Source: Patescibacteria group bacterium
GTDB lineage: Bacteria; Patescibacteriota; Patescibacteriia; UBA9934
Direction: 5' to 3'
Length of the DNA: 64,000 nt
NCBI GenBank assembly: GCA_038064675.1
Contig: JBBTSM010000010.1
Span: 2,977-66,976, forward strand
Shown one piece after another: positions 4,194 to 60,785 of the stretch. How positions within the stretch are numbered: position 1 is the stretch's first letter; each line of letters begins with the position of its first letter. The notes under the pieces are model-generated. The model was not told the DNA's origin and did no database searches. It worked only from the letters and a program-made list of their open reading frames with translations. The position numbers and the translations under genes are program-made.

Positions 4194-4225
4194 GCGCCGC
4201 CCTACGCAGGGGCGGCGTTCTGTTT
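4194..4225. terminator. GC-rich hairpin (cgccgccc-tacgcag-gggcggcg) followed by ttctgttt, between convergent genes
   Basis: Inverted repeat read directly in the sequence; T-rich tail on the + strand. Confidence 0.5.
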
Positions 4226-5441
4226 AAAGCGACGCGACGCTCTGCGCAACAGAAACAGCGAACTGAATTCCTGGTTGAGTGAGAAGGTATCCACCGACGC
4301 CGAACATGATGAGGACGTGAACGGCAAGGACGGCGGCAAAGATCTTTTGATGCTTTGACATCGGGCCCGTCGCTTCTTCTGCGTGGTCTTGTGCGGTAAG
4401 TGTTATCACTGCACGAACGTAATATGCGCTCAGAATTGCGAGAATCGCAAAGACGCACAGTGCGAGAACGAGATAGGCTTGCAACGCGTAGCCAACGCCG
4501 ATCAGTTCGCTGACGAAGAGCATCGAGAATGGTGCGCCGAGGAGAGAGGCAAAGAGCGCGCCGCAGAGATATTTGATTACTGGTCGGGTGCGAACAGATG
4601 CAGAATCTTGTGCCGCATACCACAGTCCCGAATGCGCTACTGCCTGACCACCAAGGTGAATGAGCGCTGGGATTGTTCCTGCTGGACCTGCGCCAACCAT
4701 GAAGGCAACTAGTCCAATGTGTTCGATACTTGAAATGGAAAGGAGCTGACGGTTCTTTTTAAACACGAGTTTAATGACGGAGATAAGCAAGAGGAGAACG
4801 CCAAAGCCAAGGAAGATGTTGTCTGTCCATGTGCCGCCGTCTGCCATCGCAACGTCTGCAATCTGTTTTAAGCGAAGAAGCGCAATGAAAAATACTACTG
4901 GCGCCGCTGTGCCAACAAAGCTGGTAAATCGCGTCTTCATGAAGAACAACCCGAACGCGCCAAGAATACCCACGGCAACCGCGGCGAATGCAAACTGAAC
5001 CAGCTGAGCATTGAGTGTGCTGGTTGCAAGAGTTTCAGCAACGCCACCAAAGGAAAGCGCGCTCCATGAGGACACACCAGCGTCCATCTGCGCCTTGAGG
5101 AACAGCGCCGCTCCCACAACGAAAAGCCCAACGGAACCGATACACAGCGCGAGAATGGTCTTTCGTGCTTTTTCGTTTGCTGCACGTTCCGCATGAAGCG
5201 CAAGACACGTCGCACAGATGACGGCTAATGCAAATGCGAGTGCAAGCACGGCGAGATTGTCGGTGAATAGTGTGGCGATGACGGCGATGAATCCTGCAAT
5301 AGTCACTGAGAGTTCGGATCGATGTGCTCGTGTTCCTCCGATGGTGAGAATGAATGTGCCAACTCCGAGTACTCCTACCAACACCAATTGGCACCACACA
5401 AGAAGATCTACGTGCCAAAGAGAAAGAAAGGCATTCAACAT
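4224..5441 (-). CDS. proton-conducting antiporter-like membrane subunit (NuoN/MrpD/HyfF-like, Proton_antipo_M family)
   Basis: 405 aa polytopic membrane protein. SIEHIGLVAFMVGAG and ALIHLGGQAVAHSGLWYAA resemble the conserved core of complex I/Mrp antiporter subunits. Confidence 0.55.
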   Translation of the reverse strand: MLNAFLSLWHVDLLVWCQLVLVGVLGVGTFILTIGGTRAHRSELSVTIAGFIAVIATLFTDNLAVLALAFALAVICATCLALHAERAANEKARKTILALCIGSVGLFVVGAALFLKAQMDAGVSSWSALSFGGVAETLATSTLNAQLVQFAFAAVAVGILGAFGLFFMKTRFTSFVGTAAPVVFFIALLRLKQIADVAMADGGTWTDNIFLGFGVLLLLISVIKLVFKKNRQLLSISSIEHIGLVAFMVGAGPAGTIPALIHLGGQAVAHSGLWYAAQDSASVRTRPVIKYLCGALFASLLGAPFSMLFVSELIGVGYALQAYLVLALCVFAILAILSAYYVRAVITLTAQDHAEEATGPMSKHQKIFAAVLAVHVLIMFGVGGYLLTQPGIQFAVSVAQSVASL

Positions 5442-18701: not shown

Positions 18702-19892
18702 CTATTCGTTGGTTGCGACCGCCTTCCATGTTGGATGCATTGCCGCCATACAGAACCAGAATCCGCGAACCGTTGGAAGCTCAACAAGCGCGTGCGCTTC
18801 ATCGTTATTTTTCACGCTCCAACCGTCGGCATACCACACACCACCGGTTTCATTATCGGTTAAGCGCTTCTTAGCAAAGTCAAAAGAAAACGTGTGTACG
18901 TCGCCATTGTTTGACTGTGTCTTAAATACTCGCACCGTATCCGTCTCAAAATTGTAGATAGCGATAATTGGCACGTCGCCAAGTTCTGCGGTCATCATTC
19001 CGGTTCCGGAAAGTGCGAGCGCAGAGAATGCTGAACCATTCGTTCCGTCGGTAACGCCATACGTCACCCATTTCGATGTGAAGTCTGGGCTGGTGTGGTT
19101 GATTGGAAAATAGACACCCTTGCTTGTGTCGTAATTGCCATATGGATGACGAGTGTAGTCGCGAGTAATGCCAGTGTTTGTGGAAAGCACCAAGCCAGAT
19201 GGGTACAAATTCTTCCACACCTTCCACGTCATCATCTGAGAAGGAATAACGGAAAGCGTTCGTCCGATTGCCGTACCCTGAATCGACTGACCCGTTGCTT
19301 GCAACCACAGTGATCCTGTTTCAGCATCCTTCATGACAGTATTGTTGTTGTACACCTTTCCTGTTGCTTCGAATGTATGTGTTCCGACGGAAGGAAAATT
19401 ATCAAAACTCAAATCAATATCTCGATCGTACACAACGCCCGTTCCACATAGTGGGCAGTATGTGATGGCAATATTCTTGCCATCGATCGTATCGTTCACG
19501 ACTTCGTGCCAGTTCATGATTTGTACTGGATAGAACCGGCGTGTTCCCCCGAGATCAAGATCGATGCCAAGAAGATCGTCGGCAATCACGGCGTCGGATG
19601 CAAGAACGGAATCGTATTTTGGATTCGTGAGGGCTGGAATTCCTCCTTCAACAACTCCACTGTCGTAGAGTTGATCATTCGGAACGAGCGACGCAACACC
19701 GTCGCGAGTAACCGCCGATGCGTATACACCACCATCGAGCGATGGCCATGCGGCGCCGTTTGCTTTGTTCGATTGATACGTATTGTATGCCCATGTCAGC
19801 CCAGCAATCACGACAATCGCCCCCACGAACAGCCCAAGATTTTGCTTTTGTGTTTGCGTCATAGATAGGTAGTCCTTCCCCATTTTGTCCAT
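18702..19892 (-). CDS. DUF3179-family secreted/anchored protein
   Basis: N-terminal signal anchor. WHEVVNDTIDGKNIAITYCPLCGTG matches the DUF3179 signature region. Confidence 0.55.
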   Translation of the reverse strand: MDKMGKDYLSMTQTQKQNLGLFVGAIVVIAGLTWAYNTYQSNKANGAAWPSLDGGVYASAVTRDGVASLVPNDQLYDSGVVEGGIPALTNPKYDSVLASDAVIADDLLGIDLDLGGTRRFYPVQIMNWHEVVNDTIDGKNIAITYCPLCGTGVVYDRDIDLSFDNFPSVGTHTFEATGKVYNNNTVMKDAETGSLWLQATGQSIQGTAIGRTLSVIPSQMMTWKVWKNLYPSGLVLSTNTGITRDYTRHPYGNYDTSKGVYFPINHTSPDFTSKWVTYGVTDGTNGSAFSALALSGTGMMTAELGDVPIIAIYNFETDTVRVFKTQSNNGDVHTFSFDFAKKRLTDNETGGVWYADGWSVKNNDEAHALVELPTVRGFWFCMAAMHPTWKAVATNE

Positions 19893-20105
19893 TTTCGACT
19901 CACGTCATCAAAAATTTCCTCAATGTACCATGAAGTACACCTCGGAAATTTTTTCGACGTTCATCGAAACTGGTCTAAAATGAGAAAGTCCTCATAGGCA
20001 GAAGTGTAGCGGATAACCAGTTGATTGTAAAAGATATTCACGGTATCTTTGAGTCTGATCAGGCCACGAAATGTAAAAAAATTTATCTTCAAGTGTCGTA
20101 AAACT

Positions 20106-20630
20106 ATGATCGCTATTAACAAGCCAGCACCAAGCTTTGAAAACATTACGTCGTACACCGAGGGAGAGTTCACCAAAACCAGTTTGAGCACCTACAAAGG
20201 TGGTTGGGTGGTGCTGTTCTTCTACCCTCGCGACTTCACGTTCATCTGCCCTACTGAAATTAAAGGTTTCCAAAAGCACGAAGCAGACTTTGCTGCACTC
20301 AACGCAAAAGTCGTCGGCGCATCCACCGACAGTGAATGGAGTCACAAAGCATGGTTTGAACGCGATCTTCCAGAAGTGGCCTACCCTATTCTTGCGGACA
20401 CCACGCAAAAAGTTTCCCGCGACTACGGCGTATTAAATGAAGACGACGGCAGCAGCGATCGCGGACTCTTCATCATCGACCCAGAAGGCGTGGTGAAATT
20501 CGCACTTGTCTCCGCAGGATCGGTCGGCCGATCGGTAAAGGAAGTAATTCGTGTACTGACAGCTCTGCAGTCTGGCGAGCTTTGTCCGGTGGAATGGGAA
20601 CCTGGCGAGAAGACATTAGGAAAGGCGTAA
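20106..20630 (+). CDS. peroxiredoxin (AhpC/TSA family, typical 2-Cys)
   Basis: FFYPRDFTFICPTEI holds the peroxidatic Cys; resolving Cys in GELCPVEW near the C-terminus. Confidence 0.92.
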   Translation: MIAINKPAPSFENITSYTEGEFTKTSLSTYKGGWVVLFFYPRDFTFICPTEIKGFQKHEADFAALNAKVVGASTDSEWSHKAWFERDLPEVAYPILADTTQKVSRDYGVLNEDDGSSDRGLFIIDPEGVVKFALVSAGSVGRSVKEVIRVLTALQSGELCPVEWEPGEKTLGKA

Positions 20631-20647: not shown

Positions 20648-20683
20648 GTAGGTCAGAGCCGCGTGGCTCTGACCTACTTTTGA
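20648..20683 (+). terminator. hairpin gtaggtcagagccgcgtggctctgacctac plus tttt, terminator of the prx gene
   Basis: Perfect inverted repeat followed by a T-run. Confidence 0.7.
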
Positions 20684-21852
20684 ATACAAATCTGTCGTGA
20701 GTCTCGATTGTCCGAAAACGTCAGTCGCCAGTACGTATCGTCTTCCTGAACGCGCAGTTCCATTCCAATCTCCTTACAGATTCTGGAGAAGACTTCTCGA
20801 CAAAGCAGAAATCGACTTTCCAACGTATTTGTTAATGGAGTTGGCGGTGTAACCGTGAGCTTTTGTAAATAAAATTCAAACTCCTCTGCCGCACGTTTTG
20901 TGATGCTCGGCGCAACTCCCGTCTGTACAGCATTCCGAATGGATTTCAGGATCTCCTCTTCACTTTTATTTCGAATATCTGCGGTAAAAAAATCACTATA
21001 TGCTTGCACCGCACGAATGTTTTTAAGAAAACCATGTGCGATTCTTCGGCAGGAAGTAGTAATATACGGATGCGTTCGCAAAAAACTTTGCATTCCAAAC
21101 TTTCTTACAAAGAAATACGTAAGTACAAGCTCCTCTCCAACCCACGCCGAGGGATCGAATCCTCCGATGCGAACATATGAAGCAGCACTCAAAACAGTGT
21201 TCCCGCACCATGCGCTAACAAAAGCATCCTCCGGAGCGTCAGGACCGTATGCACTTTCCAAATTCTCTACCAATCTTACTAAATCACCAAAATACGGAAT
21301 TTCATATGCGGCGTCAATATAATGCTGCGACTGCGTACTCAACAGCGCCTTTCCACGGTGAAGAGCAACAAGACTCTCAAGATACTCTGGATCGATCTTC
21401 AGTGCATCGGCGTCATTATTCACGAGCAAGGTCTCCAAACCAGATCCACGCAAAAGCGCAAGGTCATTCAGAATCTTCCGAAGAAGTCCAATTGGCGCCT
21501 TCTGTGAAAATGTCCATTCAAAAAAACACACTCGAACCGTGTGTGATTTTTGAAATTCACGAACCTGATTTTTCAACCTATTCACTGATGAATCTTCTTC
21601 CCTCCGGTTCAGGAACAGAAGAACCTCGTAACGTTGTTTTTTAATTGTCTGTTTCTCGTACAGCGTCAAAAGCCGTTCGATATTCTGTTCGGATGAATGT
21701 ACGGGGATTAAAACAAAAATGGACGTCCCTGGCACAGCCGGTGGCAGCTGTGCCAGAACATCAGCGAGCGTCTGAACGTATTCAGGATGGTTCTTCTGCT
21801 CGTTCGCAAGATACTCTTGAATCTCATCGACCATACTCAGCTCCATTGCCAT
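20674..21852 (-). CDS. GT-A-like (DXD motif) glycosyltransferase-family-2-like protein; stand-alone paralog of the C-terminal domain of the giant protein at 22829..27748
   Basis: SIFVLIPVHSSEQNIERLL (GT2-like first strand), LLVNNDADALKIDPEYLESLV, SAASYVRIGGFD. These align with giant-protein segments FEILLYVNWPK, LVIANDADTVYGSPEYLVDVL, RGSSYAAIGGN. Confidence 0.55.
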   Translation of the reverse strand: MAMELSMVDEIQEYLANEQKNHPEYVQTLADVLAQLPPAVPGTSIFVLIPVHSSEQNIERLLTLYEKQTIKKQRYEVLLFLNRREEDSSVNRLKNQVREFQKSHTVRVCFFEWTFSQKAPIGLLRKILNDLALLRGSGLETLLVNNDADALKIDPEYLESLVALHRGKALLSTQSQHYIDAAYEIPYFGDLVRLVENLESAYGPDAPEDAFVSAWCGNTVLSAASYVRIGGFDPSAWVGEELVLTYFFVRKFGMQSFLRTHPYITTSCRRIAHGFLKNIRAVQAYSDFFTADIRNKSEEEILKSIRNAVQTGVAPSITKRAAEEFEFYLQKLTVTPPTPLTNTLESRFLLCREVFSRICKEIGMELRVQEDDTYWRLTFSDNRDSRQICIQK

Positions 21853-21855
21853 TTC

Positions 21856-22251
21856 TTATTCTTGCGACTCACCTTTCGTCGCTTTGTCCAAGGCAGAGTG
21901 ATATACGGTTAATGCATCCAAACGCGCCCGTTGCTCATCCAAGCCTTCCGTGCCCGCAAGAGGAGACCGCGCCTCTGCAGAACCCTCACGACTCATCCTA
22001 TTTGCCAAGGCTGCGTAATACGCGTCCCAATCCACTACTGATTGTGGCCCCGCTTGACGAAGTGCTTCTGCCTTAGCCATAGCCTCTTCCTTTGTCCCTG
22101 GATAAACAGCAACAGTGGCAGCATGTTCATGTGCTGCAAGTAACGTATCGAATGCCTTCTTCTGACCCGGCGTATACAAAATTTGGTCTGGTTCGTGAGT
22201 CCTATCCCCTTCCGGCACACGCTCAATAAACGGATCTTTTGGTTCTGGCAT
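21856..22251 (-). CDS. hypothetical protein (131 aa), co-transcribed upstream of the GT-A-like gene
   Basis: 4-bp gap to the downstream gene. No motif. Confidence 0.4.
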   Translation of the reverse strand: MPEPKDPFIERVPEGDRTHEPDQILYTPGQKKAFDTLLAAHEHAATVAVYPGTKEEAMAKAEALRQAGPQSVVDWDAYYAALANRMSREGSAEARSPLAGTEGLDEQRARLDALTVYHSALDKATKGESQE

Positions 22252-22443: not shown

Positions 22444-22785
22444 ATGAGCAATGAGCTCCCATCACAAAGAGAGGTTGTCGAGGCAGAAATTCAAAGAGTA
22501 ATCGCCGACTACCGCGAACAAGAAAAACTTGCAGCGAGCCCAGATTACAATATTCGATACGGACCAAAGTATTTTATTGGACTAAACAAAGGACGATTTG
22601 CTTTTGCGGCACTAGGCGTTCCGCAAACGCGCGATGGTGGCGCACCATTCTATCCAAACTGGACTGTTGAAGATTTTCGACATGTCTGCCGAGAACTCGG
22701 GATCGACTACGAAGCAGCAGATACATTTGCGAACCAAGAGGTTGCCCAAAGAACACAGCGAGGTGCAGGAAAAGAGAATAATTAG
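22444..22785 (+). CDS. hypothetical protein (113 aa)
   Basis: ORF followed by the hairpin terminator at 22797. No motif. Confidence 0.4.
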   Translation: MSNELPSQREVVEAEIQRVIADYREQEKLAASPDYNIRYGPKYFIGLNKGRFAFAALGVPQTRDGGAPFYPNWTVEDFRHVCRELGIDYEAADTFANQEVAQRTQRGAGKENN

Positions 22786-22796
22786 CGGGTACAAAA

Positions 22797-22822: not shown

Positions 22823-22828
22823 TTATTG

Positions 22829-25800
22829 CTAGAACACCGGAGGAACAAATGGCCCCAATGGGTTATTTTTTAACTTCGCACCCTTTCTGTTGCTTTCTCG
22901 ATACTCAAGAAGTCTCCTGCGGAGAACCGATGTATCAGTTGGGATTACCGTAATCCACTCAGGATGAGGTGAGATATCGGCCTTTATGCCAAGGAAATCC
23001 AATGTCTGCCTCAAATACTCTTCACCTTCAAGACCGATTTGTCCGCTTCCGTGATAGTAGAAGGTTTTTTGTGCAATATGCATGAACGCTTCAATTTCAT
23101 CACGGATTCTGGCATTGAATTGTTGAACAATTTCATCGCTCTCCGAAGCCTCGGCGAGCTTTCGGACATCGAGATTTTCAGGTTGCGCGTGTTCCGCCAT
23201 TCCACCTCCTCGAACATTTTTTCTGTCGTTAAAATCAGACCACGTGTACGCAACAAGCTCTCCACTTTTGAACTTATCGATTTCACGACGTGGGTCGACC
23301 ATGACCCAATCCTTGTTCGAATATCCAACCGTTCTCTTTCCACCACGAGCGACTGAGAAGAGACGACCGAATTCGATATCTGCCCAGAAATCCTTGGTAC
23401 GATTTCCACCGATTGCGGCATAACTTGATCCGCGCAAAATCGTATTTCGTCCCTGAGTCATAATGTTCCCAGTCTTTGAGCGTGAAATTGCTTCGATAAA
23501 CTGCGCAAACCTCATCGCAACATGGAAGGTTGGATTCTTTTCGTAAACCTCCGGATCGAGATCCTGCCTACCGACAAGAGCGTCCAAATCCGGTCTCTTC
23601 TTCATGTCATCAAGGACATCGACAAGATACTCTGGAGATCCATAGACTGTATCTGCATCGTTGGCGATGACGAGAATTTCCCGGTCTCCTGATCGTCGAA
23701 GGTTTCGTCGCAACGCGAGATCGAATACTTTTCTTTTAATCCAACCGACTTCAGGTTTTCCGACCTTAATTTCCTCAGAGTATACCTTCAGTGCAACTTT
23801 AGGGTGATCTTTTCTGAAACGCTCGATCTCCGAGAATGTTTTGTTTGCATCTGCGCCTTTTGGCCAGTTGACGTAAAGAAGTATCTCAAACTTCGCGGTT
23901 TTTCCGGCCCAAACTGAAGCACCTTTCCGGTCGCGGTTCACCGCATACGTCTCCAGAGTTCTGTAAATATTTGCATGCTCACCGGCACCAGCAGCCGCCA
24001 ACGCAACACAAGCTTCTACGCTATCACCCATCTTGTCTTTGTTTTGAGCGTCAAGCGTATCGAGTTCCTTTTTGTAGCCAGGATAGCGCCTTTCCATGTC
24101 TTCGAAATACCATTCCATCTCCTTTCGCGGATTGAGAGGCGCATTTGGATCCTCTTTCAATCGAGGAGACATATCTGCACGAAGTGCCTGTTCGCTCCCC
24201 TCGGTTGCATTTGGGTAATACGGATACAGCGCAATAGCAGAATCTCCACCTTCTAATTCTGGCGTCTGATTCCCCGCTTCTGGCCCTGCAAATTCACCGG
24301 GCGGCAAAGGTGGTGGTGCAACTGGAGGCATAAACGGACCCGCCTCACCTCGAGGCCCCTTCTTCATCGGCTCCATCGGTTGACGACCGCGAATTGGGAC
24401 GAACCAAGGGACGATGACTGGCGGAACTTCGTGGCCTGGGAGATCGATGTTCGTGACGTGGCGAGCGACGGATTCAGCGGTGTCGGTGGAGGTAATTCCG
24501 GAATGGACTCCAGCGCCCTGCGCTGTTGCAAGAATACTGAAGTGGTTCACGCCAGCGGCATCGAAGCCTTTAGAAACTCCAACCTCGGCAGTGTGATACA
24601 GCGGAATAACCTTTCCGTGATCAATGCGGAAGAACGTCTTGCCGATGTCCGATGTCGGATCGATATGAATCTGCCCGTGTTGATCCGGTAATACTTCAAT
24701 AACACTATTCTGCGCGTGATCGTTCATCGTGAGCAACACACGAATTTTGCCCTCAACAAGTTCTGCCGGAGCATTATCTGTTAATCCGCTATGGAATGAA
24801 CCGTCCTTCGCCATGTGACCCATGGTCATGACGATCTGGCCATCTGAATCCAAACCCATTGGGTGCACGCCATCGCCGGTCACTCCGCCCCATTCAAGTT
24901 TCAATTCGTTGTGATCTGCGCCAAGCCAACGCTTAAGCTCCTCTGAAAAATGCATCGGCGTGTCGTTGTCCATCCAGTGATCGCGATGGATTTTCTGCAT
25001 TGCATGATGACGCAACCATTCCCATGTGCTTTCTTTGGTACTGGTGGTGGCGCCTGAATTGATCCACTGATCTTTCTCCACAATATTCGCGCCTGCACCT
25101 CGCAACGTAGCCTCCGACGCAGCATCAAGATGACCCGATGCATCGATGTGCAGGCCAGATGCAATTGCATGATGATCCGCGGCAGACTCAAGAACAAAGC
25201 TTCCATCCGCCTGCGGCACAAGATCGGTTCCCGGAGGAGTCGTGAACGATCCCCCGCCAATCATTTCCATATTCGGTGAACCGACGGCAGCAAGCGGGGC
25301 ATGATTAAAGTACGCCATGAGCGCATGCCACGCACTGCCGATGGTGGTGTCTCCACCCGTACCAAGCGCCCACAGGTCGTGAGCGACGGTACCAACAACG
25401 GCACCGATCGCCATCGTAGAAAGTCCGCGCTTCAATGCGACACGGTTCGACCACTCTGCGAACTTCTTCTGCTGCACGCGCGCTTTGCTGGTCTCCTTGC
25501 CATATAAGGAAACTTCACTCAGCTTATAGATATAGTCAAAGTACTCCTGAAATCCGGCGACGGTCTTATTCTTTACTTTCTCTCCGTATGCATCTTCGTG
25601 TGCTTTCCGAAGGGCGGCTTTCAAACTTGCACGCGCAACATCGAGATTCAACCGTTCAACTTCAGCCTCCGCAACGCCTGTATATTTCAGCAAGTCGATC
25701 TTCTCGCGATCACTGATACGAATACGCGCCTCTATATTCGCAAGGACTTCAGTAGCATTTTCGATCGTGACATCACCACGCAACTCTTTGCTATCCGCAC

Positions 25801-27748
25801 TCAAGAATCCGCGAACACTTTCCGCGAGCCCCTTTGCACTTTCACGAGCAAGCGCAAACTTCTCCATCTCTGCGCGACGAGGCTGAACCTCGCGACCACT
25901 CCGCAGCGCTTGGATTTCCTTTTCTAACGAATACCGCTCCATCGGCTGCCACCATCCAAGCTTTCCCTGTCTCGCTAATAATTCTGCCTCAACCTTATTC
26001 GAATCGTCATTCTTCGTCTCCCCACCAAGCGCCATCTGGCGTTCGTGAAGAGCGCGCTCGCTGTTCAATCGGCCCTTTTCTTTCCATGCGCTGTACGCTC
26101 CAGTGACAACTGCGGAACCTCCAAACGTAAGTGCCTTTGCCGCCGTGTTTTTGAGACCGGCCATAATTCCAATTCCCCACATGGACGCTGCCGCGCCAAG
26201 CGCGATACCGATTTCGTTTCGAAACGCTATGGCAATGGCGCCTCCAGCCACAGGGTGACGACTACTCCATTGATCAAGCTTTTCAAGTGTTTTATCAATA
26301 AAATTCTTTTCTCGTTCCGTCCGAGCGCCAAGCTTCATTCGACCAACGACAATTTCAAGATCAATATCCAGATTCTCCATCCCATTCACTGCCGCGGCAG
26401 CCTGACGAACCTGTTCCGCAAGCTTGTCCAAGTTATCCGCATACAACATGCCACGCCCTTTTGCTTCTCCGCCCAATGCATTCGCACTCGCGAAAATTTT
26501 ATCCCGACGTAATTGCAATTCCTCCTTGCTCATTTCAACGTTCGAGGCATATTCCTTCACCAACTCCAACAGATCAACACGAACCGCCTCTTCTTCTGGC
26601 GAATACTTCGTGACGCCTTCTGCATCTTTCTTTCCAAACTCCGTTCTTCGTTCTCCGTGCGCACCTTCGTTGTGCAAAAATTCATCACTTCGTTGCACCA
26701 AGCGTTCAAGCATCGCGCCAGTTGCCTTTTCGTGGTCTGCACGACTCAGCCCCTTACCAACGAAAACGTTGCGCGTAGACAGCACCTGGTTGCGTAATTT
26801 TCCAATCCCACGCTGTCGATATTCCTCGTGCGCAAGATTATGCTTGAAAATCTTATCCCACGTTCCCGCATCTCGCTTTTCTGCGTGCAATGATTCATCT
26901 ACGTCGTCACTGATAATATCCTCGGCCGTATCAGAGATATCGCCTGCGCCGTACCGCAAATGCAAAGGAACGCCCTTTTTCGCGACGGGCTTTTCGCTTT
27001 CGTCATCCTCAAGCTCAACCATCACTGGCGTTGCTGGGGGTTTTGCACCCGTCTCAACAACTTTGCGCTCCATAGAATCCGCGGTCAATTTCTCGAGATT
27101 CACAGAAACTCCACTCCCGTCTACATCAGCTGGGAGTGCTTTGACGCCCTCAGACATCGCTACAACCTTAGCAACAGGTATCGCAAGAATTTCACCTTTC
27201 GGTCCTTTTAACAGCACCGGGCTACCATCATCTCCAGACACAACACCAAGAATTCTCCATCGCTCCACTGCGGCCCCGCGCAACAAAAAAACATCTTCAC
27301 CGGCACGCCGTGCATACGCAGCCTGAGCGCGGCGAGCCTCATCTTCTGTCCATGATTCTGCCGACCAACGATGTCGTGGGCGCCTGTACGTTTCACCACG
27401 AGATACAGCATTATCGTATCCGCTCCGCATTTCGTCATCAGACAAAATTCCGTACGCATCGGCGGCCTCCTTAAATCTCCGGCTCGCCTCAGCTCGAACA
27501 GCGGCCGATTCCTTGTCGTGTCTATCAGGATGAAATTTCATCGCAAGCTTAAGGAAAGCAGCCTTAATTTCATCTTTACTCGCATTAGCGCGAACGCCCA
27601 AAGCATCGTACAGGGTCTTCGGCGCAGATTCACTACTTGATTCCGCGGTATCCGTCGCCTCGTGCGAACCGCTGTTTTTTTTATAGCCCCCGGCAACTCC
27701 CAGTCCGAAGAACGTATCTTTTCCTAACGGCATTTTATACATCAACAT
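22829..27748 (-). CDS. giant multidomain protein (1639 aa): N-terminal DnaJ J-domain, coiled-coil region, Gly/Ala-rich TM segments, proline-rich linker, C-terminal GT-A-like (DXD) domain
   Basis: J-domain TLYDALGVRANASKDEIKAAFLKLAMKFHPDRH...YGILSDDEMRSGYD with HPD. Hydrophobic AGGAIAIAFRNEIGIALGAAASMWGIGIMAG and GLSTMAIGAVVGTVAHDLWALG. PFMPPVAPPPLPPGEF linker. C-terminal LVIANDADTVYGSPEYL. Confidence 0.8.
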   Translation of the reverse strand: MLMYKMPLGKDTFFGLGVAGGYKKNSGSHEATDTAESSSESAPKTLYDALGVRANASKDEIKAAFLKLAMKFHPDRHDKESAAVRAEASRRFKEAADAYGILSDDEMRSGYDNAVSRGETYRRPRHRWSAESWTEDEARRAQAAYARRAGEDVFLLRGAAVERWRILGVVSGDDGSPVLLKGPKGEILAIPVAKVVAMSEGVKALPADVDGSGVSVNLEKLTADSMERKVVETGAKPPATPVMVELEDDESEKPVAKKGVPLHLRYGAGDISDTAEDIISDDVDESLHAEKRDAGTWDKIFKHNLAHEEYRQRGIGKLRNQVLSTRNVFVGKGLSRADHEKATGAMLERLVQRSDEFLHNEGAHGERRTEFGKKDAEGVTKYSPEEEAVRVDLLELVKEYASNVEMSKEELQLRRDKIFASANALGGEAKGRGMLYADNLDKLAEQVRQAAAAVNGMENLDIDLEIVVGRMKLGARTEREKNFIDKTLEKLDQWSSRHPVAGGAIAIAFRNEIGIALGAAASMWGIGIMAGLKNTAAKALTFGGSAVVTGAYSAWKEKGRLNSERALHERQMALGGETKNDDSNKVEAELLARQGKLGWWQPMERYSLEKEIQALRSGREVQPRRAEMEKFALARESAKGLAESVRGFLSADSKELRGDVTIENATEVLANIEARIRISDREKIDLLKYTGVAEAEVERLNLDVARASLKAALRKAHEDAYGEKVKNKTVAGFQEYFDYIYKLSEVSLYGKETSKARVQQKKFAEWSNRVALKRGLSTMAIGAVVGTVAHDLWALGTGGDTTIGSAWHALMAYFNHAPLAAVGSPNMEMIGGGSFTTPPGTDLVPQADGSFVLESAADHHAIASGLHIDASGHLDAASEATLRGAGANIVEKDQWINSGATTSTKESTWEWLRHHAMQKIHRDHWMDNDTPMHFSEELKRWLGADHNELKLEWGGVTGDGVHPMGLDSDGQIVMTMGHMAKDGSFHSGLTDNAPAELVEGKIRVLLTMNDHAQNSVIEVLPDQHGQIHIDPTSDIGKTFFRIDHGKVIPLYHTAEVGVSKGFDAAGVNHFSILATAQGAGVHSGITSTDTAESVARHVTNIDLPGHEVPPVIVPWFVPIRGRQPMEPMKKGPRGEAGPFMPPVAPPPLPPGEFAGPEAGNQTPELEGGDSAIALYPYYPNATEGSEQALRADMSPRLKEDPNAPLNPRKEMEWYFEDMERRYPGYKKELDTLDAQNKDKMGDSVEACVALAAAGAGEHANIYRTLETYAVNRDRKGASVWAGKTAKFEILLYVNWPKGADANKTFSEIERFRKDHPKVALKVYSEEIKVGKPEVGWIKRKVFDLALRRNLRRSGDREILVIANDADTVYGSPEYLVDVLDDMKKRPDLDALVGRQDLDPEVYEKNPTFHVAMRFAQFIEAISRSKTGNIMTQGRNTILRGSSYAAIGGNRTKDFWADIEFGRLFSVARGGKRTVGYSNKDWVMVDPRREIDKFKSGELVAYTWSDFNDRKNVRGGGMAEHAQPENLDVRKLAEASESDEIVQQFNARIRDEIEAFMHIAQKTFYYHGSGQIGLEGEEYLRQTLDFLGIKADISPHPEWITVIPTDTSVLRRRLLEYRESNRKGAKLKNNPLGPFVPPVF

Positions 27749-27765: not shown

Positions 27766-28065
27766 TTAGCTAAGGTACGACGTACGGAAATCCATGAGCG
27801 TTCGCGCAAGCACTTCCTGATAGTTTGGCACGTTGCTCACGAAAAACTCGCGAACAACGTCTGGTTCGGCATCGGCGTCCATAAGGTCGTTGAGCTCCTC
27901 AACTTTGTCTGTCTCGAGTAAGGCGACCATCTCTGCATTCAAACGCTCGCCAATTCTCGTCATGAGGTCTGCGCGAAGCTCGGCAAGCACCGCTTCGTCT
28001 ACCGATGTAAGCCCTCGTTCCACGAGCAAATTCTCTACGAACTGTTCAAGCGTTGGAGCTGCCAT
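27766..28065 (-). CDS. small acidic hypothetical protein (~100 aa) immediately upstream of the giant gene
   Basis: Start MAAPTLEQF; 18-bp gap to the giant ORF; acidic helical composition. Confidence 0.45.
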   Translation of the reverse strand: MAAPTLEQFVENLLVERGLTSVDEAVLAELRADLMTRIGERLNAEMVALLETDKVEELNDLMDADAEPDVVREFFVSNVPNYQEVLARTLMDFRTSYLS

Positions 28066-28144
28066 AGCAAAAAGCAAAGAGTATTAGCTCAAGTATAACA
28101 AAATGCACACCCCATCGATCCGATGAGGTGTGCATGATTCCACA

Positions 28145-29653
28145 TTACATTCTCTCGACCAGCTCAACGAGCGTTCGCACGCCGTGACCGGTTCCGCCTT
28201 TGCCCAAGTAGCTTCCCATTGGCTTTTCGGCAAATGCTGGGCCGGCGATATCCAGGTGCACCCATGGCAAGCCGTCCACGAACTCTTCCAGGAAGAGGCC
28301 GGCGGTGAGCGATCCACCGTATCGCGACGTTGGGATGTTTCGCAGATCGGCGATATCGGATTCGATGAGCGATCGATATCGCTTCTCCAGTGGCATGCGC
28401 CACATCTTCTCACCGGCGTCTTCTGCGGAATCGAGAACCGACTGCGCGAGCTCGTCGTTATTACTCATCAATCCCGTAATCTCCTCGCCAAGCGCAACAA
28501 CACATGCTCCAGTCAACGTTGCAAGATCCACCATCGCCGTCGGCTCGAGCTTCTTGGCGTACGTCAGAGCATCGGCAAGCGTGAGGCGGCCTTCAGCATC
28601 GGTATTGAGAATTTCGATAGTCTTACCGTTGCTCGCCTTCACGACGTCGCCTGGGCGAATTGCTTTGCCCGACGGCATATTTTCGACTGCCGCGATAATG
28701 CCGTGCACCTCGCATCGAGGTTGCAGCTGACCAAGAACGGTGAAGAATCCAAGTACTGCCGCAGCGCCAGCCATGTCGCACTTCATCGTCATCATTCCGT
28801 CGCCAGGCTTTAATGATAATCCTCCGGAATCGAATGTAACGCCCTTGCCGATAACGGCGAGACGCTTCCGGCTCGATCGTTCTGGTGTGTACGTGAGATG
28901 CAAGAACTTCAGCGGCTCATCGGAGCCATTCCCCACCGCAACATACGAACCCATGCCAAGCTCTTCGCATTCAGCACGATCGAGAACCTTCAATGAGAAG
29001 TTCTTCCCCGCCTCCTTCACAATTCTCTCTGCAGCCTCAGCGAGCGCCGATGGCGTCATCACCTGCGCTGGCATATTGACGAGATCGCGAGCAACGGCAA
29101 CACCGCCAGCAATCGCACAGCCACGTTCCACTGCCTTGCGCACACGAAGCACGTCGCGACCGTCGCGAATCACCAACGTTATTTCCTTCATGCGCTTTGC
29201 ACCGTTCTTTTCCTTGTATGTATCGAATGCGTAGTCCGCAAGCTGCGCTGCGACCACCATGGCTTCTGCGACATCCGCAGCATCACCTTCTTCGGACACC
29301 GGAATTTCCACCGCGAGTGTCTTCGCACCAAATCGGCGAGTCAACGTGATTGCCGTTCCGATCATTTCGCGGGCGGATTCGAGCGTAGCATCTGTAGCCG
29401 ATCCCAAACCGATAACGAGGATGTGATGATGTGCCGCATCGTGAACATCAACGGCAAGAACCTCACCGGCCTTTCCGACAAATTCGGAAGCCTTCATCGA
29501 TCGTGCCGCGCTTTTCCGAACGGATTCTGGCATTCGTCCAACGATCGATTCTATCGAGAATCCTTCCCCACTAAACACCGGGAGCACGAGCACCTCGGCT
29601 TTTGCGGAAAACAGATCCATCTTTTCTCCAAGGATGTTCATAACGGTGTTCAT
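28145..29653 (-). CDS. pepA: leucyl aminopeptidase (M17 family)
   Basis: NTDAEGRLTLADAL is the M17 signature; also VGKGVTFDSGG and DMAGAAAV. Confidence 0.92.
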   Translation of the reverse strand: MNTVMNILGEKMDLFSAKAEVLVLPVFSGEGFSIESIVGRMPESVRKSAARSMKASEFVGKAGEVLAVDVHDAAHHHILVIGLGSATDATLESAREMIGTAITLTRRFGAKTLAVEIPVSEEGDAADVAEAMVVAAQLADYAFDTYKEKNGAKRMKEITLVIRDGRDVLRVRKAVERGCAIAGGVAVARDLVNMPAQVMTPSALAEAAERIVKEAGKNFSLKVLDRAECEELGMGSYVAVGNGSDEPLKFLHLTYTPERSSRKRLAVIGKGVTFDSGGLSLKPGDGMMTMKCDMAGAAAVLGFFTVLGQLQPRCEVHGIIAAVENMPSGKAIRPGDVVKASNGKTIEILNTDAEGRLTLADALTYAKKLEPTAMVDLATLTGACVVALGEEITGLMSNNDELAQSVLDSAEDAGEKMWRMPLEKRYRSLIESDIADLRNIPTSRYGGSLTAGLFLEEFVDGLPWVHLDIAGPAFAEKPMGSYLGKGGTGHGVRTLVELVERM

Positions 29654-30290: not shown

Positions 30291-31724
30291 CTAGTAGCTT
30301 CGAGCGAAGACGACACGCTGACTCGATGGCTTTCCGGAGAACACGCATGTTCCGGTGGATGGCGCTTCGGCAAACGGAATGCAGCGAATGGTGGCGTTCG
30401 TAACTTCTTTAATCTTCTTCTCATCGTCCGCGTCGCCAGACCAATACGCCGTTACAAACTTTCCGGCTTCGATTGCAGCAACGAATTCATCCCACGTTAC
30501 AACGCTCACTGAGTTCGCTTCACGGTGTGCCAAAGCACGATCGAAAAGATTCTTCTGGATTGTTTCCATCAGATCGGCGACTGTTGCAGCAGCGTCGGCA
30601 ATCGCCACGCGAGACTTCTCGCTCGTGTCGCGACGTGCAACAACCACCTCACCCGCGGCAATATCCTTCGGTCCAATTTCAACACGAACAGGAATTCCCT
30701 TCTTTTCCCAGTGGAAAATCTTTTCACCTGGGCGGCCGTCGCGAGTATCAATCTTGCCTCGCACACCAGCCGCCTGAAGTTCAGCGAGCAAGGCGCTCGC
30801 CTTCTCCATGACCGGACCACGCTCTCCGTCTTTAAACCAGAGTGGAATGATGATCGCCTGAACGGATGCAACCTTTGGTGGAAGAACAAGACCCTGATCA
30901 TCGGAATGCGTCATGATGAGCCCGCCAATCATGCGTGTTGAAACACCCCAGCTTGTTTGCCATGCCAGCTGTTCCTCGTTGTTCTCGTCGCTAAACTTTA
31001 CGTTGAATGCTTTTGCAAAATTCTGTCCAAGGTTATGCGACGTCCCAAACTGCAGCGCCTTGCCATCTTGCATCATGGCCTCAACACAATAGGTTCGCAG
31101 CGCACCGGCAAAGCGCTCACTATCCGACTTTTGTCCTGGAATGACTGGAACCGCCATCACATTTTCCGCAAAATCAACGTAGATATCGAGCATCTTTCGA
31201 GCAAAGGCATCAGCTTCGTCATGCGTAGAATGCACCGTGTGCCCTTCCTGCCACAAGAATTCTGTGGTTCGAAGAAACAGGCGCGTTCGCATTTCCCAGC
31301 GCACCACGTTTGCCCACTGGTTAATGAGCAGTGGAAGATCACGATAGGAATGAATCCATCCGCTGAACACTTCGTACATGATGGTTTCCGATGTTGGACG
31401 AACCACAAGTGGCTCGTCGAGCTTCTTTCCACCTGCATGCGTGACCGTTGCAACTTCTGGTGCGAACCCTTCAACATGATCTGCTTCACGGCTCAAAAAA
31501 CTCTGCGGAATGAATAATGGGAAATACGCGTTCTCAACACCAACAGCCTTGAAACGGGCATCAAGATCTTTCTGGATCATCTCCCAGATCGCGTATCCGT
31601 GCGGCTTGATGATCATGCAGCCCTTCACTGGCGAATGCTCCGCCATATCTGCTGCGGCGATAACATCCAAATACCACTGACTATAATCTTCGGCGCGAGG
31701 AGTAATGCGAGTATTCGATGCCAT
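30291..31724 (-). CDS. proS: proline--tRNA ligase, archaeal/eukaryote-like type
   Basis: Class II motifs; N-terminal AEDYSQWYLDVIAAADM and HGYAIWE; C-terminal Zn-binding ProRS-C (CIPFAEAPSTGTCVFSGK). Start taken at MASNTRIT. Confidence 0.93.
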   Translation of the reverse strand: MASNTRITPRAEDYSQWYLDVIAAADMAEHSPVKGCMIIKPHGYAIWEMIQKDLDARFKAVGVENAYFPLFIPQSFLSREADHVEGFAPEVATVTHAGGKKLDEPLVVRPTSETIMYEVFSGWIHSYRDLPLLINQWANVVRWEMRTRLFLRTTEFLWQEGHTVHSTHDEADAFARKMLDIYVDFAENVMAVPVIPGQKSDSERFAGALRTYCVEAMMQDGKALQFGTSHNLGQNFAKAFNVKFSDENNEEQLAWQTSWGVSTRMIGGLIMTHSDDQGLVLPPKVASVQAIIIPLWFKDGERGPVMEKASALLAELQAAGVRGKIDTRDGRPGEKIFHWEKKGIPVRVEIGPKDIAAGEVVVARRDTSEKSRVAIADAAATVADLMETIQKNLFDRALAHREANSVSVVTWDEFVAAIEAGKFVTAYWSGDADDEKKIKEVTNATIRCIPFAEAPSTGTCVFSGKPSSQRVVFARSY

Positions 31725-31899
31725 AAAAATGTTGCTTCGTTTGAATGCGTCGATGGTACCGGAAAAAGGAAATCGTCGCAAAATCGAAACCGGGCACTTC
31801 TCTTCGAAGATGCCCGGTGCGTTGTGATGACCTCTAGCTGTCACATGTATCGTTCGTCTTGACGACACTTACTAGATTCATCGTTCGCGCTTCTCCAGC

Positions 31900-33647: not shown

Positions 33648-35432
33648 TTACTTCGCCGCTTTCAGCATCTCAATCTCTTCGCACAACACAAGCCACTGAT
33701 GCTCAATTCGGCTCAGCTCGTCGTCCAGCTCGGAGAGGCGACGGTTCTTTTCTGGTGAGTAGTCGGTTGGGTTCTCAAAAAAGTACGCAAGAATTCCACT
33801 CTTTTCTTTATCGAGCTTTTCAATCTGCACCTGCATGCGCTCTGCGAGCCGTTGCTTCTCTTTGAGCATCTGTCGACGAAGCGATCGTGCCTCCGCGTCA
33901 TCGGACAACTCCTTCGGTAGCACCTCAACGTCGTCCGCGTCCATGATCAATTCCAAGTCACGCACGTAGTCCTCGTACGTCCCAACGTAGTGACGAACAG
34001 TTCCACCACGAATTTCATAGATTCGCTCAGCAAGGGCGTTGACGAATGTTCGGGCGTGGGAAACGAAGAGTACGGTTCCGCCGTATTCCTTAAGAGCCGA
34101 TGCAAGCGACTCCGCTGTCTCCACATCAAGGTGGTTCGTTGGCTCGTCGAGAATGAGTACGCTGTGTTCGTGCAGCAACATTCCCGCCAAACACAATCGG
34201 GCGCGCTCTCCCCCGGAAAGCACGCTCGTCGTTTTCTCCAGATCGTCACCACGGAAGAGGAAGTTGCCCGCCATCATCAAAATACGCTCCCCCGATGCCA
34301 TTGGCGGCGCTAAGCGAGTGAGATACTGCAAAATTGTTTCCGTTGGAATAAGCGTCGCATCCGTCTTCTGGTCGTAATACCCAATATCTGCCCGATGCCA
34401 CCATTTTGCTGATCCCTCAATCGGCTCGAGAATTCCCGCGAGCGTCTTCAAGAGTGTTGATTTTCCCTTTCCATTCTCCCCCGCAATAACAACCTTCTCT
34501 CCACGATTAAACGTAAACGAAATGTTCGATCCAATGACTTTGTCTCCGTAGCCGATCGACAACTTTTCTACGCGCACCGCAATACCCGGGATAATCACCG
34601 GTGTTGGAATGACGATACGCGTCGTCGACAAATCTTTCTTAATGGCGACGATTGAGCGGCGGAGCTTCTCAATGTGCTTCATTTTACTTTGTGCCCGCGA
34701 CGCCTGGCTGGCCTTGTACTGAAATCGATTCACGAATTCTTGATGGTGCGCCATCTCTCTAGCCACACGCTTGTTGCTCTTCCGCACAAACTCCAACTGC
34801 TCCGCCTTCCACACAAGATAGTCTTCAACGGTTCCTGGATACGACGTCATTGCCGCACGCTCAATCTCCATGGTTGACGTACACGTGTTCTGGAGGAATT
34901 CACGATCGTGCGCGGTCATGATAAAGCTCCCTTCATACTCGGCAAGGAAACGCTCGAGCAGCAACAACGTTGGAAGATCGAGGTAGTTCACTGGCTCATC
35001 GAGCAACAAGAGATTCGGATCACACAGCAACATCGCCACAATTTTCACACGCATCTGGTATCCGCCAGACAGCGCGGTTGGTGGCTTTTCGAGGTCGGTT
35101 CCGTGCAACCCAAACTTTGCTGCAAGCTTACGCACGTCCCACGTTGGCTTGCCCGAGATCGATGAACAGTATTCCTCCGTCGTCACATCGCCTGGCAGAA
35201 TGTCGTGTTGCGCAACCATGCCAAGCTTCGTCCACGGCATGAGTTTCACGGATCCAGCATCAGGCTCCTCGATTCCCATGAGCATGTTCAGAAGCGTCGA
35301 TTTCCCAGCACCATTGCGGCCAATCAGCGCGATATGCTCCCCCTCACCCACCACAAACGAAATATCGTCGCAGACAACTTGCTTGCCATACGACTTTCGG
35401 AGGTTTTTCACGTCGAGGAGTGGCTTAGACAT
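33648..35432 (-). CDS. ABC-F family ATPase (tandem ABC domains, no TMD)
   Basis: Two Walker A sites (GRNGAGKST, GENGKGKST), two signature motifs (LSGGYQMRV, LSGGERARL), charged inter-domain linker. Confidence 0.92.
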   Translation of the reverse strand: MSKPLLDVKNLRKSYGKQVVCDDISFVVGEGEHIALIGRNGAGKSTLLNMLMGIEEPDAGSVKLMPWTKLGMVAQHDILPGDVTTEEYCSSISGKPTWDVRKLAAKFGLHGTDLEKPPTALSGGYQMRVKIVAMLLCDPNLLLLDEPVNYLDLPTLLLLERFLAEYEGSFIMTAHDREFLQNTCTSTMEIERAAMTSYPGTVEDYLVWKAEQLEFVRKSNKRVAREMAHHQEFVNRFQYKASQASRAQSKMKHIEKLRRSIVAIKKDLSTTRIVIPTPVIIPGIAVRVEKLSIGYGDKVIGSNISFTFNRGEKVVIAGENGKGKSTLLKTLAGILEPIEGSAKWWHRADIGYYDQKTDATLIPTETILQYLTRLAPPMASGERILMMAGNFLFRGDDLEKTTSVLSGGERARLCLAGMLLHEHSVLILDEPTNHLDVETAESLASALKEYGGTVLFVSHARTFVNALAERIYEIRGGTVRHYVGTYEDYVRDLELIMDADDVEVLPKELSDDAEARSLRRQMLKEKQRLAERMQVQIEKLDKEKSGILAYFFENPTDYSPEKNRRLSELDDELSRIEHQWLVLCEEIEMLKAAK

Positions 35433-60740: not shown

Positions 60741-60785
60741 AGGTTCCTATCGTATCAATTTCCCCAATATTTTAAAAGAATTGAT

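Follow-up and report, generated by a model that had tools for sequence, protein, structure and literature searches.

A giant Patescibacteria protein carrying an N-terminal J-domain, a conserved core and a predicted GT2-like glycosyltransferase domain

Results

A single reading frame of 1639 residues

The stretch of DNA analysed here, which we call the window, comprises 64,000 nucleotides of a contig from a Patescibacteria group bacterium. We focus on one giant gene, the gene immediately upstream of it and a smaller gene nearby:

22829..27748, (-) strand: whole open reading frame (ORF), 1639 aa, stop-free in translation
27766..28077, (-) strand: DUF5663 gene, ~95 aa, pI 4.1 (PF18908, 29.7 bits against a cut-off of 23.7)
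20674..21852, (-) strand: standalone paralogue of the glycosyltransferase domain, 392 aa, with an NNDAD motif (BLASTP)

The giant protein is identical to NCBI MEK7633166.1 (P0166 in our set), and P0001 differs from it only in starting at the second Met; an alternative annotated start, at Met6, gives 1634 aa. Inspection of the translation revealed no N-terminal signal peptide in the 1639-aa protein. Its odd architecture was the sole reason to consider an assembly or annotation artefact, that is, two to three genes fused by a frameshift or on a chimeric contig, and nothing was found in favour of this idea. Against it, the ORF is continuous across all 1639 aa, five contigs from public assemblies (NCBI, ENA and Logan records) encode the identical protein, the core and the glycosyltransferase domain share a single ORF in about 100 independent relatives, and the J-domain extension stops exactly where the N-terminus of the orthologues begins. 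On the basis of ORF continuity and the independent assemblies we rejected a frameshift or chimera, which we regard as exceedingly improbable. The preliminary description of this DNA had likewise treated the frame as a single gene.

A canonical J-domain at the N-terminus

27413..27613, (-) strand: J-domain, aa 46-112 (Pfam PF00226, DnaJ)
27524..27532, (-) strand: HPD tripeptide, aa 73-75, within KFHPDR (sequence)

DnaJ was the sole family matched when the whole protein was searched against Pfam. The PF00226 match (64.8 bits against a cut-off of 27.8, E 7.5e-18) covers profile positions 2-63 of 63, and a PDB search matched more than 60 J-domain chains with a best E of 1.1e-12. The domain has the HPD tripeptide, a helix II that is basic and, in helix III, the motif FxxxxxAYxxLSD. 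In the AF2 model, helices at 58-71 and 79-98 lie either side of the HPD loop at low pLDDT (50-69), and Foldseek recovers J-domain structures weakly (E 0.16-1). The canonical J-domain proposed earlier at residues ~45-110 is thereby located, and the helix II-III geometry around HPD agrees with the low-pLDDT model. Full-length DnaJ models of NCBIfam align over their first ~70 positions only, and no G/F-rich region, zinc finger or DnaJ C-terminal domain was found with Pfam or NCBIfam. Because the ancestral N-terminus has gained a canonical J-domain, we assign the protein, from its sequence, to the predicted class C (type III) J-domain proteins.

The alignment of orthologues (A1) begins where the J extension ends, at aa ~113-120. 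None of 14 close relatives carries an N-terminal J-domain, which is restricted to one 90%-identity cluster (P0001/P0166). The J-domain is thus a lineage-specific addition. A J-domain and a glycosyltransferase in one polypeptide are a rare combination, found among the relatives examined in the P0001/P0166 cluster only, in keeping with the initial impression that the architecture was unfamiliar.

J or J-like domains as such occur at the N- or C-terminus of ~4% of family representatives. P0128 has a C-terminal J-domain above the Pfam cut-off (33.3 bits, KKYHPDG) and P0113 a C-terminal J-like domain (23 bits, QWHPDL); the C-terminal J-like domains of P0055 and P0111 are without HPD (HQDKHP and YNADNG, respectively). 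HPD is retained in the first two of these and lost in the second two, and the entire N-terminal domain is absent from the 14 close orthologues. At least five family representatives gained J or J-like domains independently, at either terminus, and these independent fusions provide a Rosetta-stone argument for a link to DnaK, for which no gene was found within the 64-kb window. The selective value of the J fusion is unproven because it is confined to one 90%-identity cluster. The J-domain could be a recent neutral or decaying fusion in a protein that works like its J-less orthologues, as its presence in a single cluster, its absence from the 14 close orthologues and the loss of HPD in P0111 and P0055 would suggest. 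However, the domain of the window protein is fully canonical, scoring 37 bits over the Pfam cut-off, and the recurrent independent gains are hard to explain without a DnaK link, so that we find a neutral fusion distinctly improbable.

J-domains direct where Hsp70 works. TopJ functions in terminal-organelle assembly, and the DjlA proteins of E. coli and Caulobacter are membrane-anchored. J-domain proteins give Hsp70 its localisation and specificity (PMC3486835); DjlA has been reported as a co-chaperone in a membrane process (PMC10754441), and TopJ has been described in Mycoplasma (PMC4923136). Like DjlA and TopJ, the window protein places an HPD-containing J-domain, with neither G/F region nor zinc finger, on a large non-chaperone region that would site DnaK. 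The NCBIfam TopJ and DjlA models match it in the J-domain only, with no similarity elsewhere. DjlA, at ~270 aa, is anchored by a transmembrane segment at its N-terminus and carries the J-domain at its C-terminus, whereas the J-domain here is N-terminal; TopJ lacks an enzyme domain and has a Pro-rich region of acidic character, whereas the window protein has a 1500-aa scaffold with a predicted glycosyltransferase. We know of no described J-domain protein with such a scaffold and a glycosyltransferase, and a search of the full-text literature found none.

A C-terminal domain predicted to be a GT2-like glycosyltransferase

22832..24208, (-) strand: predicted GT-A fold, GT2-like domain with C-terminal alpha/beta subdomain and basic tail, aa 1181-1639
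23651..23659, (-) strand: DXD motif, here DAD, aa 1364-1366, within ANDAD (conservation)
23378..23383, (-) strand: A1456-D1457, equivalent of the GT2 'ED', with D1457 as putative catalytic base

The structure model of this domain is confident and matches GT2 folds at 9-18% sequence identity; the predicted structure adds elements of its own, a helical extension at the N-terminus and an alpha/beta subdomain at the C-terminus. Among the 100 glycosyltransferase-bearing family representatives, D1364 is retained in 93, D1366 in 95 and D1457 in 92; the Glu that precedes the last of these is replaced by Ala in the subtype of the window protein (14/100). NDAD is invariant in an alignment of 10 sequences (A3), and the domain also has an invariant, family-specific RR pair.

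The domain of the window protein itself has no glycosyltransferase match in Pfam even at E<=1, and a PDB profile search returned 6p61 only (E 0.37). Its relative P0002 passes the Pfam thresholds (PF13641, 29.4 vs 27; PF00535, 25.4 vs 23.3), and PF00535 is matched by 8 of 38 family members with a best E of 1.7e-9. Since the window domain falls below every Pfam glycosyltransferase threshold, its assignment as a predicted GT2-like GT-A glycosyltransferase rests on homology to these relatives and on the fold. The Rossmann-like domain with LVIANDADT noted at the outset is accordingly located, its DAD occupying aa 1364-1366 and its DXD widely conserved. Of the families then suggested for it, the GT-A, GT2-like affiliation has held up in the model but the TcdB/Lgt-like one has not: a toxin domain of that type was rejected on the ranking of structural matches, which favours GT2 folds.

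We compared the domain with the GT2 proteins PcManGT (6yv7, Pyrobaculum), SpsA (1h7l), GlfT2 (4fix), TarP/TarS and the hyaluronan, chitin and cellulose synthases (catalytic domains), from which it differs in being tethered by a Pro-rich linker to a giant scaffold. It is not a processive synthase because it has neither a QxxRW motif nor a transmembrane channel. With the glycosyltransferase toxins TcdA/TcdB (GT44), Legionella Lgt/SetA and PaTox the window protein shares a GT-A domain with DXD, a very large multidomain architecture and a host-associated lifestyle. Unlike them it is an orthologue in a housekeeping context with no translocation or autoprotease domain, and these toxins are absent among the 60 structural matches listed for the window domain.

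A large family with a conserved core and a variable C-terminal module

27134..27346, (-) strand: small N-terminal beta domain, aa ~135-205 (alignment A1; AF2 strands 153-188)
25349..26968, (-) strand: helical part of the core, aa ~261-800 (conservation, AF2)
24440..25333, (-) strand: beta-rich core domain, aa ~806-1103 (AF2 pLDDT 65-88; conservation)
24368..24427, (-) strand: Pro-rich hydrophobic motif VPPVIVPWFVPIRGRQPMEP (conservation in alignment A5)
24209..24367, (-) strand: low-complexity Pro/Gly-rich linker including PPVAPPPLPP (sequence; AF2 pLDDT <50)

Homology with family members starts at the small beta domain, which is duplicated in P0017. Conserved motifs mark the helical part (KHNxxxExYRQ, GARTE, PRRxEME and IEARIxxSD) and the beta-rich domain (W(x)DNDTP and NELKLxWGG), the latter having few Lys and Arg residues. 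The Pro-rich motif has the family consensus PPPxIPxxGRxPLEP, with P1114, P1118, R1122 and P1124 invariant in A5, and the PPVAPPPLPP linker noted previously follows at aa ~1140-1150. For aa 1-1140 the AF2 model, built from an alignment of at most 15 sequences, is of low confidence (pLDDT 60, pTM 0.36). No relative of the core was detected in Pfam, NCBIfam, PHROGs, the PDB (by sequence) or structure searches, a CheA-P2-like match of the small N-terminal domain was non-significant (E 0.19), and no conserved P-loop was found in the core. We use 'scaffold' as a description and not as a function because the core is without a detectable relative of known function.

The family sharing this core (~1000 aa) is without a Pfam model and comprises 1248 clusters at 50% identity; a search with the core profile gives 1248 representatives at E<=1e-3 and, at the stricter E<=1e-30, still 701. 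Our scan of genome contigs used narrow patterns and therefore under-sampled the family. Between the window protein and P0002-P0010 sequence identity ranges from 26 to 64%, and further alignments cover larger shares of the query. Core plus a GT2-like domain is the usual architecture, seen in 100 of 129 representatives (~78%); other C-terminal modules are Ser/Thr kinase (Pkinase), GT9-like, Peptidase_C2 (calpain-like), HopA1-like, YkuD and J domains. The family members found belong to Patescibacteria, and they form a large unnamed family of this lineage, defined by the core profile and a neighbouring DUF5663 gene.

Weakly hydrophobic helices and a conserved charge pattern

26081..26263, (-) strand: H1 and H2, Gly/Ala-rich, moderately hydrophobic, aa 496-556, a candidate membrane hairpin
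25349..25441, (-) strand: H3, third conserved hydrophobic helix, aa 770-800, preceded by a basic flank

In Kyte-Doolittle (KD) windows of 19 residues, only aa 513-531 of the window protein reaches 1.6 (maximum 1.63), the other segments lying at 1.2-1.3. Family medians are 1.25 for H1, 1.33 for H2 and 1.56 for H3, where 45% of members reach 1.6. The segments are conserved in position across the family and lie below usual transmembrane hydrophobicity. The earlier proposal of a membrane-anchored protein thus stands as regards the presence and conserved position of Gly/Ala-rich hydrophobic helices, but their strength is weak (KD 1.2-1.63).

Lys and Arg show an asymmetry that is conserved in the 129 members: they make up 36% of the 15 aa leading into H3 but 9% past this helix, where the flank is acidic, 8.8% of the beta domain, 15-18% of the helical and glycosyltransferase regions and 27% of the stretch just after the Pro motif. 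This pattern fits an extracellular location of the beta domain, a model that needs an unorthodox fourth crossing. The protein could then be receptor-like, crossing the membrane four times and coupling an event outside to an enzymatic output inside. H1 and H2 would form a hairpin and H3 would lead outward, the beta-rich domain (aa ~806-1103) would bind envelope or host material, and PPPxIPxxGRxPLEP would return the chain to an output module inside (GT2, Ser/Thr kinase, GT9-like or J), the N-terminal J-domain still working with the cell's own DnaK. The charge asymmetry around H3, the rank of H3 as the most hydrophobic segment and the output-type C-terminal modules, kinases for example, are all consistent with such an arrangement. 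It is nevertheless unlikely in our judgement: the return segment is not a normal transmembrane helix because it has ~8-12 hydrophobic residues and many prolines, H1 and H2 are weakly hydrophobic, and the positive-inside rule is unreliable at a domain size of ~300 aa.

YkuD L,D-transpeptidases are extracytoplasmic enzymes. One relative with such a module at its C-terminus, P0092, has an extra hydrophobic helix between the glycosyltransferase region and YkuD.

A fixed slot beside a DUF5663 gene

The DUF5663 gene lies immediately upstream of the giant gene, on the same strand, in 9/9 loci examined, including those of the distant P0009 and P0010. Its product is a protein of ~100 aa, acidic and helical-looking, and no fusion of DUF5663 to the core was found among the 129 representatives. 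In Uhrbacteria-type genomes the pair keeps a fixed place among housekeeping genes, the giant gene lying in a conserved slot between Peptidase_M17/DUF5663 and AhpC/DUF3179, and each locus examined has a single copy of the giant gene, orthologous across Uhrbacteria/Patescibacteria MAGs. A fixed slot among housekeeping genes implies that the locus is not accessory, contrary to how it had looked at first sight. An adjacent paralogue cassette and pseudogene remnant had also been described. The former is present as the standalone glycosyltransferase-domain paralogue (25% identity to the domain over 244 aa, BLASTP E 1e-9, also found by tblastn), part of a three-ORF insertion missing from most syntenic loci, but no pseudogene remnant of the giant gene was found at 18000-22900, where tblastn matched only this paralogue. 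In sister lineages an adjacent gene of 835-841 aa with a HAD domain was considered as a split-off glycosyltransferase domain and rejected as unrelated. A search of the literature on DUF5663, giant proteins of Uhrbacteria and fusions of J-domain and glycosyltransferase found nothing relevant.

Polymorphic toxins and LXG-type proteins are modular, with small helical partner proteins encoded upstream. The family of the window protein resembles them in its conserved N-terminal region, variable C-terminal enzymes and acidic protein of ~100 aa encoded upstream. It differs from them in having no secretion-system or immunity-like genes in the neighbourhoods examined, no WXG/LXG motifs, a single copy per locus and a dominant C-terminal module that is conserved and not polymorphic. 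This bears on the possibility that the protein belongs to a contact-dependent effector or polymorphic-toxin-like system of an episymbiont, with the C-terminal warhead delivered to the host, the conserved N-terminal part serving for anchoring or export and DUF5663 acting as a dedicated chaperone or targeting factor. The modular layout with a flexible linker, the effector-typical domains in the family (Pkinase, Peptidase_C2, HopA1, GT and J), the small acidic partner gene, the standalone glycosyltransferase paralogue nearby, the moderate rather than strong hydrophobic segments and the restriction of the members found to Patescibacteria would fit such a system. We find it very unlikely all the same, given a single-copy orthologue in a housekeeping slot, a glycosyltransferase that ~78% of members carry, its catalytic residues conserved and with no cassette-like swaps between close relatives, a GT2 fold unlike that of known glycosyltransferase toxins, a J-domain at the N-terminus and so far from the supposed warhead, and a relative (P0092) that requires an extra transmembrane helix to place YkuD outside. 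The gene is housekeeping-looking rather than an accessory-island toxin.

Discussion

The results above show which domains the protein has, how far their motifs are conserved, the size of the family, its synteny, its pairing with DUF5663 and the repeated fusions to J-domains. The reading that we favour, tentatively and at slightly less than an even chance, is that the protein is an enzyme on a membrane-associated scaffold and that its J-domain recruits DnaK of the same cell. The core would consist of the small beta domain, the helical region with H1-H3, the beta-rich domain, PPPxIPxxGRxPLEP and the flexible linker, the latter holding a variable enzymatic module that is most often a predicted GT2-type GT-A glycosyltransferase. 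The hydrophobic helices may keep the scaffold at the membrane. Both termini would face the cytoplasm because the J-domain, GT-A and kinase modules need DnaK, NDP-sugar or ATP, and a cytoplasmic C-terminus is supported by P0092, which inserts its extra helix before an extracytoplasmic YkuD. The missing signal peptide at the N-terminus agrees with this placement. The glycosyltransferase domain could then transfer sugar to an acceptor close to the membrane, with DAD 1364-1366 binding the divalent cation and the nucleotide-sugar donor and D1457 acting as base. The N-terminal J-domain, for its part, would dock DnaK-ATP and trigger hydrolysis, and Hsp70 may act on the scaffold or its partners in folding, assembly or remodelling. 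Several points count against this reading: a core with no detectable relative of known function, the low confidence of the AF2 model of aa 1-1140, a glycosyltransferase domain below the Pfam thresholds and with Ala for Glu in its ED motif, the weakness of the hydrophobic segments, a charge pattern that fits an external beta domain, the lack of a DnaK gene in the window and the restriction of the J fusion to one 90%-identity cluster.

A more ambitious picture, which we consider a long shot, would make DUF5663 and the giant core a hitherto unrecognised, Patescibacteria-wide modular envelope machine, with the beta-rich domain facing outward, to the host or the environment, and interchangeable heads (GT2, kinase, GT9-like, protease and J-domain) on a Pro-rich tether. 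The heads might enter the host cell or act upon it, or contact might be converted into envelope glycosylation, with Hsp70, the cell's own or the host's, powering assembly or action, as the J-domain versions would indicate. If true, episymbiotic bacteria would have in this machine a host-interaction system that defines their lineage.

Returning to the scaffold-enzyme, the J-domain on a conserved scaffold, together with J or J-like domains at the opposite end of relatives, offers a testable handle on an opaque family. This family is among the larger unnamed ones in Patescibacteria and usually carries an apparently active GT2-type glycosyltransferase. The analysis provides a definition of the family (core profile plus DUF5663), a catalogue of C-terminal modules and H73, D1364, D1366 and D1457 as candidate residues for mutation. 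Patescibacteria have tiny genomes, and their envelopes and host attachment are poorly understood. A protein of ~1000-1600 aa kept in a housekeeping slot of such genomes is likely to be important, whether in envelope biogenesis or in host interaction.

An intact gene in a shared gene order

The giant gene (22829..27748, minus strand) is by far the longest ORF of the region, and its 1639-aa translation is uninterrupted. The window protein is present on five contigs from public assemblies and is identical to NCBI MEK7633166.1; databases already list it as an uncharacterised entry. Given the unbroken frame and these independent records, a frameshift or chimera is very unlikely, in agreement with the single gene of the preliminary description, and an assembly or annotation artefact deserves almost no credence. 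The surrounding genes, in order, are:

33648..35432, ABC-F
30291..31868, ProRS
28145..29653, Peptidase_M17
27766..28077, minus, DUF5663, immediately upstream of the giant gene
22829..27748, minus, giant gene
22444..22785, plus, divergent 113-aa ORF, no Pfam or PHROG match
21856..22251, minus, 131-aa ORF preceding the GT paralogue, no Pfam or PHROG match
20674..21852, minus, standalone 392-aa paralogue of the GT domain (E 1e-9, 25% identity, NNDAD)
20049..20630, AhpC
18702..19892, DUF3179

Orthologues from MAGs of Candidatus Uhrbacteria and other Patescibacteria have a matching order around them, with ATP synthase genes coming after this block in related loci, and the locus is thus not the accessory one proposed earlier. 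Compared with most syntenic loci, the three ORFs that follow the giant gene form an insertion; the second motif of the GT paralogue is GEELVL, not ED. A 391-aa gene occupies a similar place in another family locus, L014. Elsewhere in the window, Pfam gives no match at E<=1e-5 for two sizeable ORFs, 60006..61652 (plus, 548 aa) and 4224..5441 (minus, 405 aa), the former lying in the highest-GC stretch (0.577 at 60-62 kb).

In 9/9 loci (the window, L002, L003, L005 and L012-L016), two of them with distant members in different neighbourhoods, the next gene upstream of the family gene encodes DUF5663. The product is an acidic protein of about 95-104 aa (pI ~4.1) with a conserved C-terminal FR(T/A)(S/T)YL. 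Fusion of DUF5663 to the family protein was found in 0/129 representatives, and no mention of DUF5663 was found in the literature searched.

A large family sharing the core

Word-indexed searches returned 14 relatives of 984-1576 aa with 26-64% identity to the window protein. A profile of the core, the middle ~1000 aa, was then searched against 1.84 billion representatives and matched 1248 proteins at E<=1e-3, of which 701 reach E<=1e-30, with lengths of about 930 to 2066 aa among the 150 matches listed. Judged by sequence comparison, the conserved part of the window protein is its middle. The core has no known relative in Pfam, NCBIfam, PHROGs or PDB sequences, and structure searches with a weak AF2 model of aa 1-1140 (pLDDT 60, pTM 0.36) found nothing meaningful. 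Its parts are:

aa ~135-205, small beta domain
aa ~261-800, long helical region with three conserved, moderately hydrophobic helices
aa ~806-1103, beta-rich domain (AF2 pLDDT 65-88) with motifs W(x)DNDTP and NELKLxWGG
thereafter, invariant Pro-rich motif PPPxIPxxGRxPLEP
thereafter, disordered Pro/Gly linker

The Gly/Ala-rich hydrophobic helices described earlier were located at aa ~496-556 (H1, H2) and ~770-800 (H3), and the PPVAPPPLPP linker is present in the translation. The small beta domain is seemingly duplicated in the relative P0017 (aa 1-200; L014 1643..6373), units resembling it occur in N-terminal extensions of P0026, P0036, P0057 and P0073, and its resemblance to DUF6406 and to the P2 domain of CheA is weak and not significant.

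Recurrent J-domain fusions

The predicted N-terminal J-domain was confirmed by Pfam DnaJ at aa 46-112 (64.8 bits versus a cut-off of 27.8, E 7.5e-18), with HPD at aa 73-75, and dozens of solved J-domain structures match (E down to 1e-12). It occurs only in the window protein's own cluster: 0/14 close relatives carry it, and their N-termini align at window residue ~113-120, the exact end of the J extension. A recent functionless fusion is, in our judgement, an improbable reading. Other family members carry J or J-like domains at the C-terminus (motif, Pfam score and state of HPD):

P0128, KKYHPDG, 33.3 bits (above cut-off), canonical HPD
P0113, QWHPDL, 23 bits, HPD present
P0055, HQDKHP, about 23 bits, J-like without HPD
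P0111, YNADNG, about 23 bits, J-like without HPD

Independent J fusions at either end are a Rosetta-stone type of argument for DnaK as a working partner of the family.

A GT2-like domain and other C-terminal modules

The window protein's own C-terminal domain is not recognised by Pfam, while the same domain in P0002 passes GT2 cut-offs (PF13641, 29.4 vs 27; PF00535, 25.4 vs 23.3) and PF00535 is matched by 8/38 family members (E down to 1.7e-9). The structural matches listed include these GT2 enzymes:

6yv7, PcManGT, 17.0
8smm, hyaluronan synthase, 16.9
4fix, GlfT2, 16.8
8k52, chitin synthase, 16.4
1h7l, SpsA, 14.9

The reported DXD is present as ANDAD, and over 100 GT-bearing relatives D1364 and D1366 are kept in 93% and 95%, D1457 (the Asp of the GT2 "ED" motif) in 92% and the family-specific pair R1487/R1488 in 91%/96%. 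The fold and DXD results thus leave the GT-A assignment standing. In the window subtype (with P0011, P0012, P0014, P0015 and P0017) Ala or Gly replaces the Glu of ED and the Asp is retained. The domain seems to be an active GT2-like transferase. A basic tail, NRKxxKLxxNPL..., ends this subtype (window aa 1618-1639, nt 22832..22897; also P0011, P0012, P0014 and P0017); other GT subtypes lack it. No TcdB/Lgt-type toxin was found among the 60 structural matches listed. The toxin/effector framing put forward earlier is not supported, and we regard a contact-dependent effector system as unlikely.

The GT domain follows the linker in 100/129 top representatives, and many members add further C-terminal modules. 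Module types were confirmed by Pfam on a sample of extensions (Ser/Thr protein kinase, GT9-like, DUF362, YkuD, calpain-type protease, HopA1, DnaJ), the remainder being assigned by eye. Partly by eye, a Ser/Thr protein-kinase-like domain follows the GT in P0027, P0042, P0044, P0057, P0060, P0062, P0082, P0083, P0089 and P0133, and a GT9 heptosyltransferase-like domain replaces GT2 in P0023, P0039, P0048, P0079, P0091, P0094 and P0130. YkuD (behind an extra TM helix), calpain-type protease, DUF362 and HopA1 occur once each. Some lineages lack the GT domain; at three loci from two lineages (Uhrbacteria) such a gene is directly followed by an 835-841-aa gene that overlaps or abuts its stop codon and has a HAD-hydrolase domain at aa ~245-460 (L003 10729..13236; L008 9348..11873; L009 9426..11933). 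This gene was considered as a relative of the GT domain and ruled out, being unrelated on comparison.

Topology and proposed role

Only one 19-residue segment of the window protein reaches Kyte-Doolittle 1.6, and family medians for the three hydrophobic segments are 1.25, 1.33 and 1.56. J-domains, GT-A domains and kinases depend on partners or substrates found in the cytoplasm, and P0092 inserts an extra hydrophobic helix ahead of its terminal YkuD domain; the simplest placement of both termini is therefore cytoplasmic. K+R content is 36% in the 15 aa before H3, 9% in the 15 aa after it, 8.8% in the beta domain, 27% just after the Pro motif and 15-18% in the helical and GT regions. This striking distribution would fit four crossings in a receptor-like protein that has its beta domain outside the cell, but the segment proposed to lead back across the membrane has far too few residues and too many prolines to be a standard transmembrane helix. 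We keep both topology models and consider the receptor-like one rather unlikely.

Our preferred, still tentative, reading makes the protein a membrane-associated scaffold-enzyme that belongs to a conserved Patescibacteria family and whose GT2-type head would glycosylate a membrane-proximal acceptor. With its lineage-specific N-terminal J-domain it would be a class C J-domain protein, recruiting DnaK of the same cell to the scaffold. The data show the domain identities, the conserved motifs, the size of the family, the synteny, the pairing with DUF5663 and the repeated J fusions, while the protein's localisation and topology, its acceptor and the part played by DnaK are inferred. DjlA and TopJ, site-specific class C JDPs (PMC3486835, PMC10754441, PMC4923136), are the closest known analogues of the J part and GT2 enzymes those of the C-terminus, whereas the core is unlike either.

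This unusual architecture is real, and the J-plus-GT protein newly combines kinds of domain that are already known. Of greater interest is the large family associated with DUF5663, for which Pfam has no model and the literature searched no description, and which is clearly important to these Patescibacteria.
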